A stretch of 39,249 nt of DNA. Origin: a virus. Its lineage: Duplodnaviria; Heunggongvirae; Uroviricota; Caudoviricetes. Below, one piece after another: positions 12,364 through 30,478 of this stretch (the first letter of the stretch is position 1; each line of letters starts with the position of its first letter). The notes beneath the pieces are model-generated. The model ran no database searches, was not told where the DNA came from, and saw only the letters and a program-made list of their open reading frames with translations. The stretch lies in the IMG/VR virus record IMGVR_UViG_2519899835_000006, one strand, 5' to 3'. The translations under genes were made by a program, and so were the position numbers.

Positions 12364-13211
12364 TACTGCTCCGCGATTATCTTGATGGTTGTGGCAGTAA
12401 ACGCCGCACCATTTGACTGAATGGTTAACGTGCTGCCATTTGTGGCAAGAAAGCCGTCTTTATCCACGCTGAAGAACGTAGCTAACAAGATGTTGTCGGT
12501 TGTTGTCACCGCATTACGACTGCTAACCAACGTGTCAGGAACAGAACCGGAAAATGTTAGCTGCATTGACCTGTTGGCGGTTCCGCTGGGCCACGTCCCG
12601 ACAATCGACAGCTTGAAGAACAGGGTTTTGTTCTCGTTGAACACAACCATCTTGTTGTTAACAGTGTCGAAGAATGGTGCCAACGTGCCGGATGACGGCG
12701 TGAGCGTTTTCAGCAGGCTAACAAGGTTGGTCGGCGCTGTCGGGATGGTTACTGATACGCCAGAGTAAACAACCTCTGACTTCTTGCGAGTAGTGGCATA
12801 CTCCAGAGCATCGATGCGCGATTCATGGTCTGAAACCTGCGACTCCAGCGACTGAACTCTGGTATCAAGCGACGCAATATCGCTTTCATTCTGAGCGATT
12901 CGCGTTTCATGTTCCTGAAGAGTTGATTCTGCCTGGCTGATTCTCTCCTCATGATTAACAAGCGTTGCTTCCGCAGCAGAAATTCGCTGCTCATGGTCAG
13001 CGAGAATCACATCCTGCTCATCGTTCCTGACTTGTGCGTCATAAGCGCCCTGTCCGGCCTCGTTGGCCTTGTTAGCCACGTTACCAACATCAGTACCCTG
13101 TGCGATAACGTACAGCAGATATGACTGCGAAAAGATATTGCGTGGAAGGACTGATGTGTCGAGCCGTGTAGCCTGAATGATTACCGGCACATTGAGATTC
13201 GAATCCGCCAT
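12363..13211 (-). CDS. Tail needle protein (P22 gp26-like N-terminus and coiled coil, Sf6-type C-terminal knob)
   Basis: 282 aa; N-terminus [43 protein letters not shown] matches gp26; central repeated HExRI coiled-coil motifs; C-terminal approx 120 aa extra domain. Confidence 0.9.
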
Positions 13212-22093: not shown

Positions 22094-22529
22094 AACCTCG
22101 TCTAGTTGTTCGTCATAGATTCAGTGGCTGGCGGTGACGATTCCGCTTTTCGGGAGCTACCCTAGCCACTGTTTTATTCTATCCGATGTCTTTCCATCAG
22201 TCCGCCACCACAAAGAATCTTTTTTGCCATAAGGCAGGAGGTTCATCTTTCAGTGGCTGCCAGTGTTATTTCCCCACTTACTGGCTTGGGTTGTTTCGCT
22301 GTACTGCCGTAACTGGTTGCCCAGAATAAATTCCGGTTTCATTATCAAGCCCACCCGTAGATAGGCTTTGTAATGAACTGGCTCTTATCTCAACGCAGCC
22401 CCTTACCGCGCGCCAGATGCTCAACTTCAAGCATCAGCAATGAGATGTTTAATCTGGATTCACTCCAGAAGTGATCACCACCCTGTCTACAGAGCCAGAT
22501 GTGAAGGATGATAAGTAAAATTATCGCTA

Positions 22530-22997
22530 TCATCGAAGGCATTGCGTCCTGATGTATTCCTGAAGCGTTCTCAGTGCTGTCTGGTCTCTGATGATTCCGT
22601 CCCGGATACCGAGAACGTTTCGTCCAGCAACTGGAGAGAGTTCGACGGTGGCATCATTGCCCATGCCGGAGGCGCTGGAGGTTTCGGCTGAGGATGGCAC
22701 AGGGCATTTTCCTTTGACGAGCACCCTGCCACCATTATCAAGCTTGCGCCGAAGAGCATCATTTTCAGCTTTCGCATCAGCTAACTCCTTCGTGTATTTA
22801 GCATCGAGTACATCAGCAGCACGCTGGCGTTGCTGCATGTCAGTAATGGTGGCGGTCGCCTGCTTCAGCTCACTGACTTTTTTATCTCGCTGCTCTTTGT
22901 AGGCGATGGCGTTATCACGGTAATGATTAACAGCCCATAACAGGCAGACGATGATGCAGATAACCAGAGCGGAGATAATCGCGGTGACTCTGCTCAT
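22530..22997 (-). CDS. Rz: Rz i-spanin
   Basis: 155 aa, N-terminal TM anchor, coiled-coil periplasmic domain, directly downstream of endolysin. Confidence 0.85.
22571..22777 (-). CDS. Rz1: Rz1 o-spanin lipoprotein, embedded in Rz in the +1 frame
   Basis: Embedded ORF with lipobox (MVAGC) and proline-rich PPAPPAW segment typical of Rz1. Confidence 0.75.
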
Positions 22998-23470
22998 ACC
23001 TCAATCTCTCTGACCGTTCCGCCAGCCTCTTTGAATTTTGCAATCAGGCTGTCAGCCTTATGCTCGAACTGACCATAACCAGCGCCCGGCAGTGAAGCCC
23101 AGATATTGCTGCAACGGTCGATAGCCTGACGGATATCACCGCGATCAATCATCGGTAAAGCGCCACGCTCTTTAATCTGCTGCAATGCCACAGCGTCCTG
23201 GCTTTTGGGAGAGAAATCTTTCAGGCCAAGCTGCTTACGATAGGCATCCCACCAACGGGAAAGAAGCTGGTAACGTCCGGCGGCTGTTGATTTGAGTTTG
23301 GGGTTTAGCGTGACAAGTTTGCGAGGGTGATCAGAGTAATCAGTGAATAGCTCTCCGCCTACAATGACGTCATAACCATGATTTCTGGTTTTCTGTCGTC
23401 CGTTATCAGTCCCCTCTGACCACGCCAGCATATCGAGGAACGCCTTACGTTGATTATTGATTTCCACCAT
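22994..23470 (-). CDS. R: Endolysin R (lambda-type lytic transglycosylase)
   Basis: 158 aa, [39 protein letters not shown]... essentially matches lambda R. Confidence 0.92.
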
Positions 23471-23777
23471 CTTCTACTCCGGCTTTTTTAGCAGCGACGC
23501 GTTTGATAAGCGAACCAATCGAGTCAGTGCCGATGTAGCCGATGAACACGCTCGTTATATAAGCGAGATTGCTACTTAGTCCGGCGAAGTCGAGAAGGTC
23601 ACGAATGAACCAGGCGATAATGGCGCACATCGTTGCGTCGATTACTGTTTTTGTAAACGCACCGCCATTATATCTGCCGCGAAGGTACGCCATTGCAAAC
23701 GCAAGGATTGCCCCGATGCCTTGTTCCTTTGCCGCGAGAATGGCGGCTAACAGGTCATGTTTTTCTGGCATCTTCAT
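23454..23777 (-). CDS. S: Holin S (lambda-type class I holin with dual-start MKM motif)
   Basis: 107 aa, [35 protein letters not shown]... essentially matches lambda S; overlaps R start. Confidence 0.92.
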
Positions 23778-24019: not shown

Positions 24020-24095
24020 TGGTGCTGGTTAACGGACTTGAACCGCTACCCATTCGCTTACAAGGCGACTGCTCTACCATTGGAGCTAAACCAGC
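24020..24095 (-). tRNA. tRNA-Thr (anticodon UGU), CCA encoded
   Basis: Hand-folded cloverleaf: 7-bp acceptor stem GCTGGTT/AACCAGC, D-arm GCTC-CAATGGTA-GAGC, anticodon loop CTTGTAA, T-arm AGCGG-TTCAAGT-CCGTT, discriminator A + CCA. Confidence 0.65.
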
Positions 24096-24100
24096 ATGTT

Positions 24101-24175
24101 TGGCGGGACAGCGTGGACTCGAACCACGATAAGAAGGTTAACAGCCTTCCGTAATGACCTTTATACGACTGACCC
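24101..24175 (-). tRNA. tRNA-Asn (anticodon GUU), CCA encoded
   Basis: Hand-folded cloverleaf: anticodon stem GAAGG/CCTTC with loop CTGTTAA, T-arm CGTGG-TTCGAGT-CCACG, acceptor with one U-U mismatch, discriminator G + CCA. Confidence 0.7.
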
Positions 24176-26379: not shown

Positions 26380-26833
26380 TATTGGCGTCCTGCATCATGA
26401 GAAAGACAATCATGGCGGCGCGGAGTGGAGATTCACCGCAGAAGTAGTAGCCAGGAATATTTTCCCATTCCCAACAACCTTCCTCTAAATCACCTCCTGA
26501 CCATGCGCACCATTCTTTTTCCGCTGTCATCCACATAGTGCTGATTTTGCTTTCAGTGATTATTGGCCACGCATATTCAGGATTATTGCAAGGATTGAAG
26601 CAATTTCCGTTTGAAGAACGGAAGCCATTAATATCCCTTTTTTGCGTCTGCCAAATAGGACCTCTTTCGTCAGTGGGGATCTCAGAATCGAAGTCTGCTT
26701 CGTCATCAGGTATGAAGAAATGCTCCTCCATATCTAAAGCCTCACATACTCGTCTGTTAATTTCAAAATCACTTAACTGTGAATAATCCATTGTCATTTC
26801 CTCGCACGATGTCTTAGCCACCGGATATCCCAC
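26372..26833 (-). CDS. Hypothetical nin-region protein (NinX-like by position)
   Basis: 153-aa ORF between ninE and ninF, the position occupied by ninX in P22-like phages. Confidence 0.5.
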
Positions 26834-26970
26834 AGGTGAGCCGTGTAGTTGAAGGTTTTTACGTCAGATTCTTTTGGGATTGGCTTGCGTTTATTTCTGG
26901 AGCGTTTCGTTGGAAGGTATTTGCAGTTTTCGCAGATGATGTCGGTGAAACTTCGTCGCTGTCGTCTCAT
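26794..26970 (-). CDS. ninE: NinE; true start [10 protein letters not shown] inside the longer track ORF
   Basis: [58 protein letters not shown] matches lambda NinE. Confidence 0.85.
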
Positions 26971-27377
26971 TCGTACCTCCTGTCGGTAAATCTGACACCC
27001 TGACCAATAGCCCATGCTGTCGTGTACTCAATCAGACTTGCCATACGCTTCACGCTCATCTGCGCGCTGCTTTCGCGAATGTTGACGTATTCGCCTTCAA
27101 GGCCGGGCAAAACATCAGCTTCCTGTTTTGTTGCCACTGCATGACCGCTAATCAACAAAACCTTCCATTGTTCCGGTTTTAACCATTTGCCGCACCATTG
27201 AACCTGACGAGCGATATCCGCCAGCATCGCGTGAAATTTTGCGTTCTGGTCAAGGTTGCGCTTGTAGTCAGTAATGCGGATGGTGACTGGCTTGTCTTTA
27301 TCGAGTGGTGTTGCGAGGATGGCGTTGATTGCGGCTTGCTGTTGTTGCTTACTTCGGAGGAAGATTGTTTGCTTCAC
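26967..27377 (-). CDS. ninB: NinB recombination protein
   Basis: 136 aa with [27 protein letters not shown] aligning to lambda NinB. Confidence 0.85.
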
Positions 27378-27388
27378 TGAACACTCCT

Positions 27389-27580
27389 TTATTTTTTATG
27401 CCTGTAACCCCATTCTTCCAGCAACCTTGCGGCGTACCACCCAAGAAACAAAGGAAAGAACATTACAATGAGATATGCCACGCCACGGTCAATGTTCGAA
27501 ATTGACCAGATTACGATGTAACCAGTGCAGGACAGGAATATTACAAACCCCAAAAAGCTACTTCGTCGACTCATGCTCAC
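27389..27580 (-). CDS. Small membrane protein, unknown function
   Basis: 63 aa with two hydrophobic helices. Confidence 0.4.
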   Translation of the reverse strand: MSMSRRSSFLGFVIFLSCTGYIVIWSISNIDRGVAYLIVMFFPLFLGWYAARLLEEWGYRHKK

Positions 27581-27861
27581 TCCTTCACTTTGATTCCAGC
27601 GGCGCGGATGGATTCATCGATATCGTCACGGTCGTACACAGCAATAGCATCACTGACAAACCATACAGGCAACTCAATTTCAATAGCTGCTCGCGATGCC
27701 TGCCACGTTTGCCAGTGGCCTTGAACATCGTCCATCACGTATTGACCACCAATATCACCACTGCCAATTTCATGGTGATTTTCAGGGTAACGGATAAGGT
27801 CTGATGATTCGCCTCCACGTCGCAACCAACTTTCTTCAAACTGCTTTCTTGATTCGTCCAT
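27577..27861 (-). CDS. Hypothetical acidic protein
   Basis: 94-aa ORF in operon context between helicase and ninB (the ren/ninA position). Confidence 0.45.
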   Translation of the reverse strand: MDESRKQFEESWLRRGGESSDLIRYPENHHEIGSGDIGGQYVMDDVQGHWQTWQASRAAIEIELPVWFVSDAIAVYDRDDIDESIRAAGIKVKE

Positions 27862-27878
27862 CGATACTTACCCTCAGT

Positions 27879-28085
27879 TCAACTCACAAAACGCCACGCC
27901 ATTTTTGCTACGACAACAGGCATAACACCGATAATCACCCAGACAAATGCAGCGCCAAACAACGTATACCATGGGTCTTTACCGTCATTCACAAGACGAA
28001 TGTAGCTATGCAGAACAATAAAAAACGTCAGAAGAATCCATCCAACGCCAACGCATTTGAATGCGACGAGCATAAACTCAGCCAC
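27879..28085 (-). CDS. Small membrane protein, unknown function
   Basis: 68 aa with two hydrophobic helices. Confidence 0.4.
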   Translation of the reverse strand: MAEFMLVAFKCVGVGWILLTFFIVLHSYIRLVNDGKDPWYTLFGAAFVWVIIGVMPVVVAKMAWRFVS

Positions 28086-28157
28086 GATTTACTCTCCCCC
28101 AAATAAAAAGGCCTGCGATTACCAGCAGGCCTGTTATTAGCTCAGTGATGTAGATGG

Positions 28158-29534
28158 TCATACGTCAGCCCCTTGTGCATATCGTCTGCCACGCGCAGCA
28201 GGTGCATTTGATGCTGTGCAAATCTGTCTGGCTTCATCCTGGTCACATGCAACAAAGTGTCCGTTACAGAACCGCTGGTAAACCGTACCAAGCGAGCCAA
28301 AACGGTTTTTCGTCACAATGATTTCAGCAAATGGCGCGGCGCTACTGTTCTCGTCATATACCGCTTCCCGATAGAGCATGATGATTGAGTCTGCGTCCTG
28401 TTCAATGCTTCCTGAATCACGCAAATCTGCGTTTGTCGGGCGTTTGTTTGGTCGCTTCTCAACATCGCGCGAAAGCTGACTTAGGGAGATAACAGGCGTT
28501 TTCAGGTCTTTCGCCATCGCCTTAAGGCTTCCGGAGATGTGAGCAATTGCGAGGTCGTTGCGATCTGCTTTCGGCTTCTCAATCAGGCCAAGATAATCCG
28601 CCATGATGAGTGACAGGTTTGGATTTTCCTGTTTGTGCCGTTCTGCGATTGAGCGTATTTCTTCGACCGATAACCGCGAGGCATCGACTACCCATACATC
28701 CAAATCTGCAAGCTGACTCATGCCGTTAGCAACACGCGCCCAGCCTTCGTCATCCATCGATGCAGGATTTCGCAGCACGCTAACCGACATCCTCCCGGCG
28801 TTGGCAATGCTTCGCTCTGCAATCTGCAATGCGCTCATTTCCATTGAGAAAATCAACACTCCGCGCCGGACGTCAGAACCAGGAATAACGCGGCTTGCAA
28901 CGCCTTCGGCAATCTTCAGCGCCAGTTCGGTTTTCCCCATACCAGGACGAGCAGCGATTATCACCAGGTCTTCTGCGTTCATCCCTCCGGTGATGGCGTC
29001 AAGTTCTTCGATTCCGGTCTTCAGGGTATCTGACTCTTCTCCGTTCCTCAGACGCCTGTCAAGCGTGTCAGTGTAGTCAGTGATGATTTCCCCTAACCGT
29101 ACAGGTTTAACCTCGTCACGGGGCTTTCTGATAGCTGAAAGACGCTTCACAAGCTCATCCATCGCCTGACTCGATGCGTCGATGGTTCCGCTCTGAATTG
29201 GTTCACGCATTTCATCCATGATTTCCAGCACCAGACGGCGGTGATAGTTATCCGCGACCATTCCGGCATATCCCTTCAGGTTTGCGGCACTCGGGCAGTT
29301 TTTGCTGGTCATCAGGATTGACGTGAAATGCTCCTCTCCGCACGCCTCGGCAACCATCAGCGCGTCGATTAGGTTTCTGTTTCGCGCCTGCTTGCGGATA
29401 ACCTCGAAGGCTTTCCGGTAGAGCGGAATTGAAAACGCTTCCGGCTCCAGCGTTGCCAGAACGTCGCTGGCGGTTGGTGTTAATCCACCAATCAGCAGGC
29501 CACCGATAACGCTCGCTTCGATATCCTGTTTCAT
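28158..29534 (-). CDS. Replicative DNA helicase, DnaB-like (P22 gene 12-like)
   Basis: 458 aa; Walker A ARPGMGKT, DnaB-type motifs; downstream of O-like initiator. Confidence 0.9.
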
Positions 29535-30478
29535 GCAATCCCCCTGTCTGCAAACTTCCCTTCCCGAACTCCCGTTAACGAATCTTCCCTCAGCAGGTAA
29601 TCAAAATCGGCCGTCCAGCCAGTGTCGTTGTCTCCGAAGTAAAACGGCTTGGCCTGATGTACAAACGCCCTGACATACGCTCTGAAACCGTCCACGTTTG
29701 GCGTTTTCAGTTGCGGGATGATTTTCTTCAGGCGGCGTTTGCGTTTCTCGTTGACCGCAACAGCGTGTGGCAGTCTGTCACCGACTTCGGTGTTGTAGGC
29801 GTTCAGGAAGGATTCGTAGTCGATTCGTTCTGCCTTGCGACGTTCAGGTTTAACCTGCCCATCGCCGCCCCCATTGGGGGGTAGGGGGGTATTATTTATA
29901 TTCTTGTTAATACCTTCTTGTTCATGATGTGCGGTTGTTTGTGCGGCTTCATGTGCGCTTTCATGTGCGGCATGTACTCTGAAAGCCGCGCCATTGCTGG
30001 CTTCGTCATGTGCGGCATCATGTGCGGTTGTTTGTGCGGCTTCATGTGCGGGTGAATTGTCCATTTTTTGAGCGTATTCATGGTAATTTGTGATGGTGAT
30101 CACACGACCTTTTTGCTTCTCTCCATCAATGGAGATCATCCCCTCTTTCACAAAAACCTGAAGCATCCGCTCAACCTGATCACGGCTTGCTGGCTTGCCA
30201 TGTCTGTCGCATAACTGAAGACCTAAATCAGCTGCTGTCACAACCAGTTGACCGGGTTGCAGATGCCATTCATGACCTTTGAAATTCGCTTTGTATGGCT
30301 TTCTGGCGGCATTCAGGAGAAGGTTTTCCCACAGGGTGCGAAGATAAACATCTTTCGCCCATGACTGTTTCAGAATGCTCCGGTACAACGGAATGTAACC
30401 AGTTTTCTGGTTCTCCATCCTGTTGCTCCTGCGCTCGTGTGCGGCGCTGAAATCGTAGATTTTTGCTGTATTGCTCAT
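29531..30478 (-). CDS. Replication initiator, lambda O-like (N-terminal iteron-binding domain) with internal repeat region
   Basis: 315 aa; N-terminus [10 protein letters not shown] resembles lambda O MTNTAKILNF; contains the iteron repeats encoding [14 protein letters not shown] repeats; ATGA overlap with helicase. Confidence 0.8.
29927..30051. repeat. Origin-of-replication iterons: 8 copies of (CA)TGTGCGG spaced about 12 bp, in two clusters of four, inside the O-like gene
   Basis: Direct reading; motif copies at about 29927, 29940, 29950, 29961, 30007, 30019, 30033, 30043. Confidence 0.7.

Follow-up and report, generated by a model that had tools for sequence, protein, structure and literature searches.

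The 39,249 nucleotides (nt) of IMG/VR virus record IMGVR_UViG_2519899835_000006, hereafter the window, represent an essentially complete P22-like (Lederbergvirus) prophage of Escherichia coli. Between its replicative helicase gene and ninB lie three small genes on the minus strand, orf68, orf94, and orf61, named here for the lengths of their products in amino acids (aa). The reading that we tentatively favor is that these are independent, non-essential accessory genes of the nin region, expressed in an N-dependent, delayed-early manner, and that two of them act at the inner membrane. They are ordinary members of the large known pool of uncharacterized nin-region accessory genes and not a system; orf68 and orf94 are already catalogued in PHROGs, and orf94 also in Pfam. 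An earlier note on this DNA, made from its letters alone, had placed three small genes at 27389-28085 between helicase and ninB and had described two of them as two-helix membrane peptides and the 94-aa protein as acidic. All of this was borne out, the membrane character as a prediction, with the change that the last gene is better read as 61 than as 63 aa.

Each of the three genes has a Shine-Dalgarno (SD) sequence of its own. The first, orf68 (27879-28085; PHROG 1165), starts at a GTG with the SD GGGGGAGAG 8 nt 5' of it; orf94 (27577-27861; PF26207, PHROG 343) starts at an ATG with the SD GAGGGT; and orf61 (27389-27574) starts at an ATG with the SD AAGGAG, which is formed by the last codons of orf94. 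Spacing across the cluster is 2-17 nt, with 17 nt between orf68 and orf94, and the ninB SD, also AAGGAG, comes immediately 3' of the orf61 stop codon. A GTG start for the third open reading frame (ORF) would give the 63-aa form (27389-27580). The SD directly abuts this GTG and stands 5 nt from the ATG at 27574, and phage vB_EcoP-611R6 and metagenome gene callers also have the 61-aa form, so the ATG is almost certainly the true start.

From sequence comparison, we regard it as close to certain that all three ORFs are real genes, because their lengths are conserved and because purifying selection, for orf61 and orf68, is confined to the called frames. A 74%-identical copy of orf61, present on two metagenomic contigs, has exactly 61 codons and a strong SD. 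Between the two copies, the proportions of synonymous and nonsynonymous differences (pS and pN) are 0.56 and 0.16 (Fisher p 4e-6; dN/dS 0.17); the other five frames carry stops and have pN/pS values of 0.6-1.8, leaving the called frame alone open and constrained. The antisense frames over orf61 showed no purifying constraint, in a comparison that covered the orf61 part of a second antisense ORF of 109 aa (27475-27804, plus strand). For orf68, comparison with HK022 gives a sense-frame pN/pS of 0.50 (p 5e-4), and exactly 68 codons are kept down to 50% identity in a family of 43 protein clusters, all from Escherichia or Salmonella. A 100-aa plus-strand antisense ORF over orf68 (27804-28106) stays open in HK022 and SPN9CC; it was rejected as a gene because it evolves neutrally (pN/pS 0.92), and it appears to be a by-product of sense-strand composition.

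These data bear on the suggestion that one or more of the ORFs are non-functional passenger sequence left by illegitimate recombination. RefSeq drops orf61, constraint on orf68 is only moderate overall (pN/pS 0.50-0.65), and orf94 is a patchwork, as such passengers might be. However, the frame-specific purifying selection is significant, ORF lengths and SDs are preserved, and the genes occur on hundreds to thousands of contigs, and we consider this explanation very improbable indeed. A copy of orf68 is found in 107 phage records from Escherichia, Salmonella, and Shiga toxin phages, including HK022, HK620, mEp213, and H-19B, as well as in 261 IMG/VR stretches and, at full or near-full length, in 228 complete E. 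coli genomes. In HK620 (NC_002730.1) the copy at 12378-12581 has 95.6% identity and lies between 'ninA' and ninB with no coding sequence annotated, so that a well-used model phage carries an unannotated gene for a 68-aa membrane protein next to its tR2 terminator.

By comparison with this wide distribution, orf61 is a narrow orphan family of four protein clusters (at least 74% identity) and four phage records. It occurs in 62 IMG/VR loci, all at least 93% identical, and in 195 of 5426 complete E. coli genomes (about 3.6%), among them LF82 and enterohemorrhagic strains. In 12 of the 12 genomes listed, out of the 195 carriers, it has no feature in RefSeq or from the Prokaryotic Genome Annotation Pipeline (PGAP); in strain NCCP15648, for example, it falls at NZ_CP009050.1 2968669-2968854, in a gap in the locus tags between RS15940 and RS15930. 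GenBank submitters and phage records do call the gene. It is thus probably a small gene that RefSeq systematically drops, and its annotation should be restored. The sole match among GTDB species representatives is a 10-kb contig (locus L092, JAEZIN010000021.1) labeled 'MAG: Bacillota bacterium'. It carries E. coli-phage sequence, in which a 97%-identical orf61 follows a PF26207 3' end, and probably represents phage DNA assigned to the wrong bin.

The products of orf68 and orf61 are, by prediction, very probably inner-membrane helical hairpins. Summed Hessa insertion energies identify two insertion-competent segments in each, at residues 5-25 (-0.7 kcal/mol) and 42-60 (0.0 kcal/mol) of the orf68 product and at residues 7-23 (-0.8 kcal/mol) and 32-48 (+0.9 kcal/mol) of the orf61 product. 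AlphaFold2 (AF2) models the former as a tight hairpin of helices 2-33 and 38-67 with a turn at an invariant G35-K-D (mean predicted local distance difference test score [pLDDT], 88.8). Its second helix is near-invariant (W49, I52, G53, P56, V57, A60-K-M-A-W64, F66) and its first helix is variable. Both proteins are basic, with isoelectric points (pI) of 9.0 for orf68, whose grand average of hydropathy is 1.23, and 9.7 for orf61, as opposed to 4.58 for the hydrophilic orf94 product. In orf61, two N-terminal arginines and a C-terminal R-HKK point to both ends lying in the cytoplasm. The two hydrophobic proteins were rejected as paralogues (hhalign probability 0.5%). Also rejected was a lipoprotein assignment for orf61: the window's IFLS|C fits a lipobox, but the -1 residue is a disallowed V in cluster P0165 and I in P0167, and the hydrophobic stretch runs on past the cysteine.

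Directly after the helicase stop codon lies a tR2-type intrinsic terminator (28099-28132, minus strand, including the U-run), with its hairpin at 28109-28132. An 8-bp GC-rich stem (AGGCCUGC...GCAGGCCU) is followed by UUUUUAUUU and then directly by the orf68 SD. The folding energy of this RNA is -16.7 kcal/mol (z -2.7), and an identical sequence carries the label 'terminator tR2' in the HK620 record and the label 'terminator' in that of P22. The stretch of about 40 nt from hairpin to SD is invariant among the window, HK022, SPN9CC, and HK620. A different gene lies upstream of the shared hairpin and orf68 in HK022; because hairpin and SD are identical all the same, we conclude that the terminator and orf68 travel together. 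This is the only strong terminator-like site outside coding sequence, and it stands upstream of the three genes, not downstream. Over 26800-28700, a crude consensus search found no sigma-70-like site on either strand, versus 2.3 expected.

Lacking a promoter of their own and lying directly downstream of tR2, the three genes would be transcribed only by read-through of the pR operon, and N-dependent delayed-early expression is accordingly probable. The nin region is known to be N-dependent and non-essential, with closely packed genes that come from a pool of 30-50 (PMC8022706, PMC5630979). In the mechanism that we propose, an N-type antiterminator would let RNA polymerase pass tR2 during infection or induction and not in the quiescent lysogen. 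A single polycistronic delayed-early mRNA would then be made, with each gene translated from its own SD. The orf68 and orf61 products would insert into the inner membrane as two-helix hairpins, and the orf94 product would remain soluble.

Overlapping the terminator is a 27-aa ninA-like ORF (28078-28161, minus strand) whose translation matches the annotated ninA of P22, HK620, and SPN9CC. It begins in an ATGA overlap with the helicase stop, reads across the tR2 hairpin, and terminates in an overlap with the orf68 GTG; the hydrophobic stretch GLLVIAGLFIW that it encodes is a reading of the hairpin and U-run. In HK022, the hairpin and orf68 are present but the 5' part of the ORF is missing. That the ORF is coding is doubtful. 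If it were translated, ribosomes might in principle influence whether the hairpin forms or be passed on to orf68.

The position of the terminator also bears on the possibility that the peptides are expressed from the prophage as toxins or lysogen-protecting exclusion factors, in the manner of the morons HK97 gp15 and P22 SieA. Prophage-borne small membrane proteins with exclusion roles exist, and the small size, two transmembrane (TM) segments, and high hydrophobicity of orf68 and orf61, together with a hypervariable accessory slot, would suit such a function. However, moron genes have their own promoter upstream and their own terminator downstream, whereas the three genes have no promoter-like site on either strand, have a strong invariant terminator just upstream, and run directly into ninB with no terminator after them. 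No superinfection-immunity model in Pfam and no defense model in PADLOC (E at most 1) matches any of the three proteins, and searches for toxin families in Pfam and NCBIfam at E at most 1 gave weak compositional matches only. Type I toxins (Hok/Gef, Ldr, TisB, Ibs, ShoB) combine a toxin family with an antisense RNA, neither of which was found here; the Rfam scan returned no family within the cluster region. Toxin, holin, and exclusion roles had been raised by the earlier note, and the anatomy of the locus does not support them: besides the lack of a promoter-like site, the upstream terminator, and the absence of family matches, the lysis cassette lies elsewhere. We consider expression as lysogen toxins or exclusion factors distinctly unlikely.

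Some 140 related loci were compared for the combination of genes in the slot. Of 80 IMG/VR loci whose orf68 is at least 90% identical, 69 contain a PF26207 gene and 24 contain orf61, and orf68 stands directly before ninB in 11; these same loci have three types of upstream replication gene and several divergent ninB types. About 15 of the 63 loci with orf61 have the helicase and orf61 without orf68, and the divergent (74%) orf61 directly follows a helicase gene with neither orf68 nor a PF26207 gene present. The three genes are quite probably independent modules, exchanged as cassettes, and not a three-part system. Such cassettes would be swapped by recombination at conserved gene ends. In relatives, the slot holds a 60-aa ORF with two TM segments and no PHROG or Pfam match (locus L085, from position 3733) and a 108-aa protein with an N-terminal TM helix that belongs to phrog_5903 (locus L031, from position 2436), both unrelated to orf68 and orf61; elsewhere it also holds an FlbD-like protein and several small uncharacterized proteins. 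Membrane proteins account for about four of the nine families seen between tR2 and ninB.

Phages that share only about 60% identity in the 5' two-thirds of orf68 are near-identical from its final ~60 nt across the 17-nt spacer to the first ~30 nt of orf94 (27879-27941 and 27832-27861, minus strand), and in many E. coli genomes the match is limited to nt 145-207 of orf68. Such a pattern suggests either a mosaic joint within orf68 or a conserved linker that favors the exchange of cassettes.

The conserved end of the PF26207 gene raises the question of whether orf94 and orf61, or all three genes, form one module in which a soluble protein works with one or more membrane partners. All 63 close copies of orf61 start 2 nt after a PF26207 stop codon and have their SD in the last codons of that gene, and all 24 of the orf61-bearing loci among the 80 orf68 loci have a PF26207 gene. 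However, these close copies are at least 93% identical and form one young clade, which may simply carry the recombination joint along, and the only divergent orf61 has no PF26207 gene beside it. The middle and C-terminal parts of the PF26207 partner vary to about 40% identity next to near-identical copies of orf61, and PF26207 genes are far more widespread without it. Because the same PF26207 3' end also directly precedes ninB in other loci and carries the SD of whichever gene follows, we take it to be a joint, shared between loci, for recombination and translation and not evidence of a two-protein system. A coupled module therefore seems to us improbable, and we retain the reading of independent accessory genes.

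None of the three genes had been recognized in the earlier note; two of them belong to known, if uncharacterized, families. The orf68 product (WP_000807325.1; UniProt B7LBP1_ECO55) matches phrog_1165 (E 1.6e-38, residues 1-68 on profile positions 1-68 of 68), and that of orf94 matches phrog_343 (E 1.2e-27, residues 1-94 on profile positions 36-125 of 135), both in the category 'unknown function'. The assignment of orf94 to Pfam PF26207 (Phage_phiTE_015) comes from precomputed tables, in which the label is on a 99%-identical cluster representative (P0001) and on more than 300 relatives, and, as PF26207.1, on nearly all of the 120 relatives listed; a local Pfam scan did not return the model. For the identical protein, WP_000344553.1, PGAP gives the name 'phiTE_015 family protein'. 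Scans with Pfam, NCBIfam, and PADLOC models gave no match for orf68 or orf61, and no PADLOC model matches orf94 at E at most 1. A profile search for distant relatives of orf61 gave no matches and did not recover its own family either. Every source names the three proteins 'hypothetical', and a literature search found no functional study of these three genes.

The orf94 family is a conspicuous mosaic. Three blocks, MDESRKQFEE, WxxWQASRAAIEIELP, and IRAAGIKVKE, are kept, and the sequence between them is unrelated, so that orf94, which shares the N-terminal block, the central WxxWQASR, and the C-terminal block, is one of many variants. In some PF26207 relatives (P0024, P0002), an additional N-terminal cysteine-rich segment (CQKCNNTG...CDC, of the form CxxC...CxC), which resembles a zinc ribbon, is fused to the MDESR core; orf94 lacks this extension because of an in-frame TAA 9 nt 5' of its ATG. 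AF2 gives orf94 three helices at low confidence (pLDDT 66.8). A Foldseek search of this model against the PDB returned nothing at E < 0.5, a PDB sequence search returned nothing, and a fold search of BFVD matched uncharacterized phage proteins only; PF26207-like folds are also present in unrelated virulent phages. For the orf68 model, all matches to PDB folds were non-significant (best E 2.8).

What the membrane peptides might do can be approached through timing and position. The likeliest role, though one that we hold loosely, is in competition between phages, with the peptides acting on inner-membrane processes at an early point of lytic growth. They might counter membrane-acting exclusion or abortive infection by resident prophages, and would then be functional analogues of Ren, or they might exclude superinfecting phages, as T4 Imm does. 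T4 Imm and its kin are small inner-membrane superinfection-exclusion proteins made early in lytic growth, and the proposed likeness of orf68 and orf61 to them is one of function, with no match to a Pfam superinfection-immunity or PADLOC model. A hint of membrane action is that the slot also hosts the two further unrelated small hydrophobic families of 60 and 108 aa. A bolder proposal is that the interval from tR2 to ninB is a dedicated hotspot for small inner-membrane peptides, of at least four unrelated families, that antagonize membrane-acting exclusion or abortive-infection systems (RexAB- or SieB-like) of resident prophages. This is a long shot; if true, such peptides would be a new anti-defense class, doing at the membrane what Ren does for lambda.

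Alternatively, the peptides might modulate the physiology of the host inner membrane for the phage's own development and not for competition, for example by tuning FtsH/HflKC in the CII-dependent lysis-lysogeny decision, by inhibiting division or transport, or by anchoring the replication complex to the membrane, as p16.7 does in phi29. Delayed-early timing, a position directly after the replication genes and in the same operon as cII, and the hairpin predictions all agree with this explanation. Against it, the genes are absent from many similar phages with the same helicase, including P22, and orf61 is missing from 56 of the 80 close orf68 loci; they therefore cannot be needed for any core step of development. 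The Pfam and NCBIfam scans also revealed no similarity to any known modulator. We find a role of this kind rather unlikely.

Several points weigh against the reading of the three genes as independent delayed-early accessory genes with two membrane-acting products. The promoter search could have missed a weak or non-sigma-70 promoter. The topology of the orf68 product is ambiguous, with two lysine or arginine residues in the loop versus two to three at the termini, and the invariant adjacency of all 63 close orf61 copies to a PF26207 gene could mean functional coupling instead of a shared recombination joint. Family, structure, and sequence searches returned no homologue of characterized function for any of the three proteins, and the suggested role in phage competition draws only on timing and on two analogies, to Ren in this slot and to T4 Imm.

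The cluster is embedded in a conventional early-right operon on the minus strand, which runs from Cro and CII through an O-like replication protein (29531-30478) and a DnaB-type replicative helicase, the analogue of P22 gene 12 (28158-29534, minus strand; Pfam DnaB_C E 9.5e-78, DnaB E 4e-13), to orf68, orf94, and orf61. The slot is closed downstream by ninB, encoding an Orf-family recombination mediator (26967-27377, minus strand; Pfam NinB E 1.1e-55), after which come NinE, NinX, NinF, NinG, NinH, a Ser/Thr phosphatase, and Q. The 901 nt at 27300-28200 are 100% identical to a locus in the E. coli NCCP15648 chromosome, where PGAP names the flanking genes 'replicative DNA helicase' and 'recombination protein NinB', and 99.1% identical to phage vB_EcoP-611R6. 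Two tRNA genes, Thr-TGT and Asn-GTT, lie between Q and the holin gene (24020-24175, minus strand). Rfam also identified sar RNA, the P22 immI antisense regulator of ant (63.7 bits; 6328-6393, plus strand), and an int-alpA RNA match (42 bits; 22110-22172, minus strand).

If the reading that we favor is right, the practical gains are modest. The slot would provide a compact collection of small membrane proteins, produced early in lambdoid infection and amenable to genetics, which could be screened for superinfection-exclusion or anti-exclusion activity. It hosts such proteins repeatedly. None of these findings alters the accepted view of how lambdoid genomes are organized.

Among known systems, holins resemble the two hydrophobic proteins in size and architecture. 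Class II holins and the phage 21 pinholin S21-68 are about 60-70 aa long with two TM helices, and orf68 and orf61 share this size and these two segments, a generic feature that does not discriminate. On this likeness, and on the short charged C-terminal tail (EEWGYRHKK) and M-S-M start region of orf61, the peptides might be holins, antiholins, or pinholin-like regulators of lysis timing. However, holins belong to the late lysis cassette beside the endolysin, whereas orf68 and orf61 are in the early operon and a complete lambda-type cassette is present after Q (22530-23777), with an S holin (PF05106, E 5e-30), a 158-aa ORF in the endolysin position (which had no Pfam match), and Rz. Neither Pfam nor PHROG gave a holin family match for either protein, orf68 has no charged tail, and a dual-start motif in orf61 was discarded, as the GTG lacks a usable SD and the divergent copy has a different spacing. 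Lysis regulation is, in our judgment, highly unlikely.

The earlier note had equated this position with the ren/ninA slot of lambda and P22. The slot itself stands, being a variable one between the replication genes and ninB where lambda has ren, but none of the three genes is Ren or NinA. A tblastn overlap with 'ninA' of HK620 and HK630 had suggested that orf68 is NinA; the records show ninA to be a 26-27-aa ORF over the terminator. In P22 and HK620, it runs from the helicase stop (ATGA) over the tR2 hairpin, which fits none of the three genes, and its counterpart in the window is the separate 27-aa ORF in the first position after the helicase. As for Ren, which protects lambda against Rex exclusion, family scans named nothing of that kind for orf68 or orf61, which also differ from it in that Ren is not a membrane protein. 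Its 96 aa are close to the 94 of orf94, but the two have no sequence or profile similarity: BLASTP gave no alignment at E at most 100, and hhalign of the PF26207 alignment against Ren gave a probability of 0.07%. Their arrangement differs as well, as lambda ren overlaps the end of P and is followed by a 73-nt gap before ninB in which tR2 lies, whereas the window's three genes lie downstream of tR2. What Ren does share with the cluster is its place in the pR operon, after the replication genes and before ninB, and its character as a non-essential accessory gene of the infecting or induced phage.

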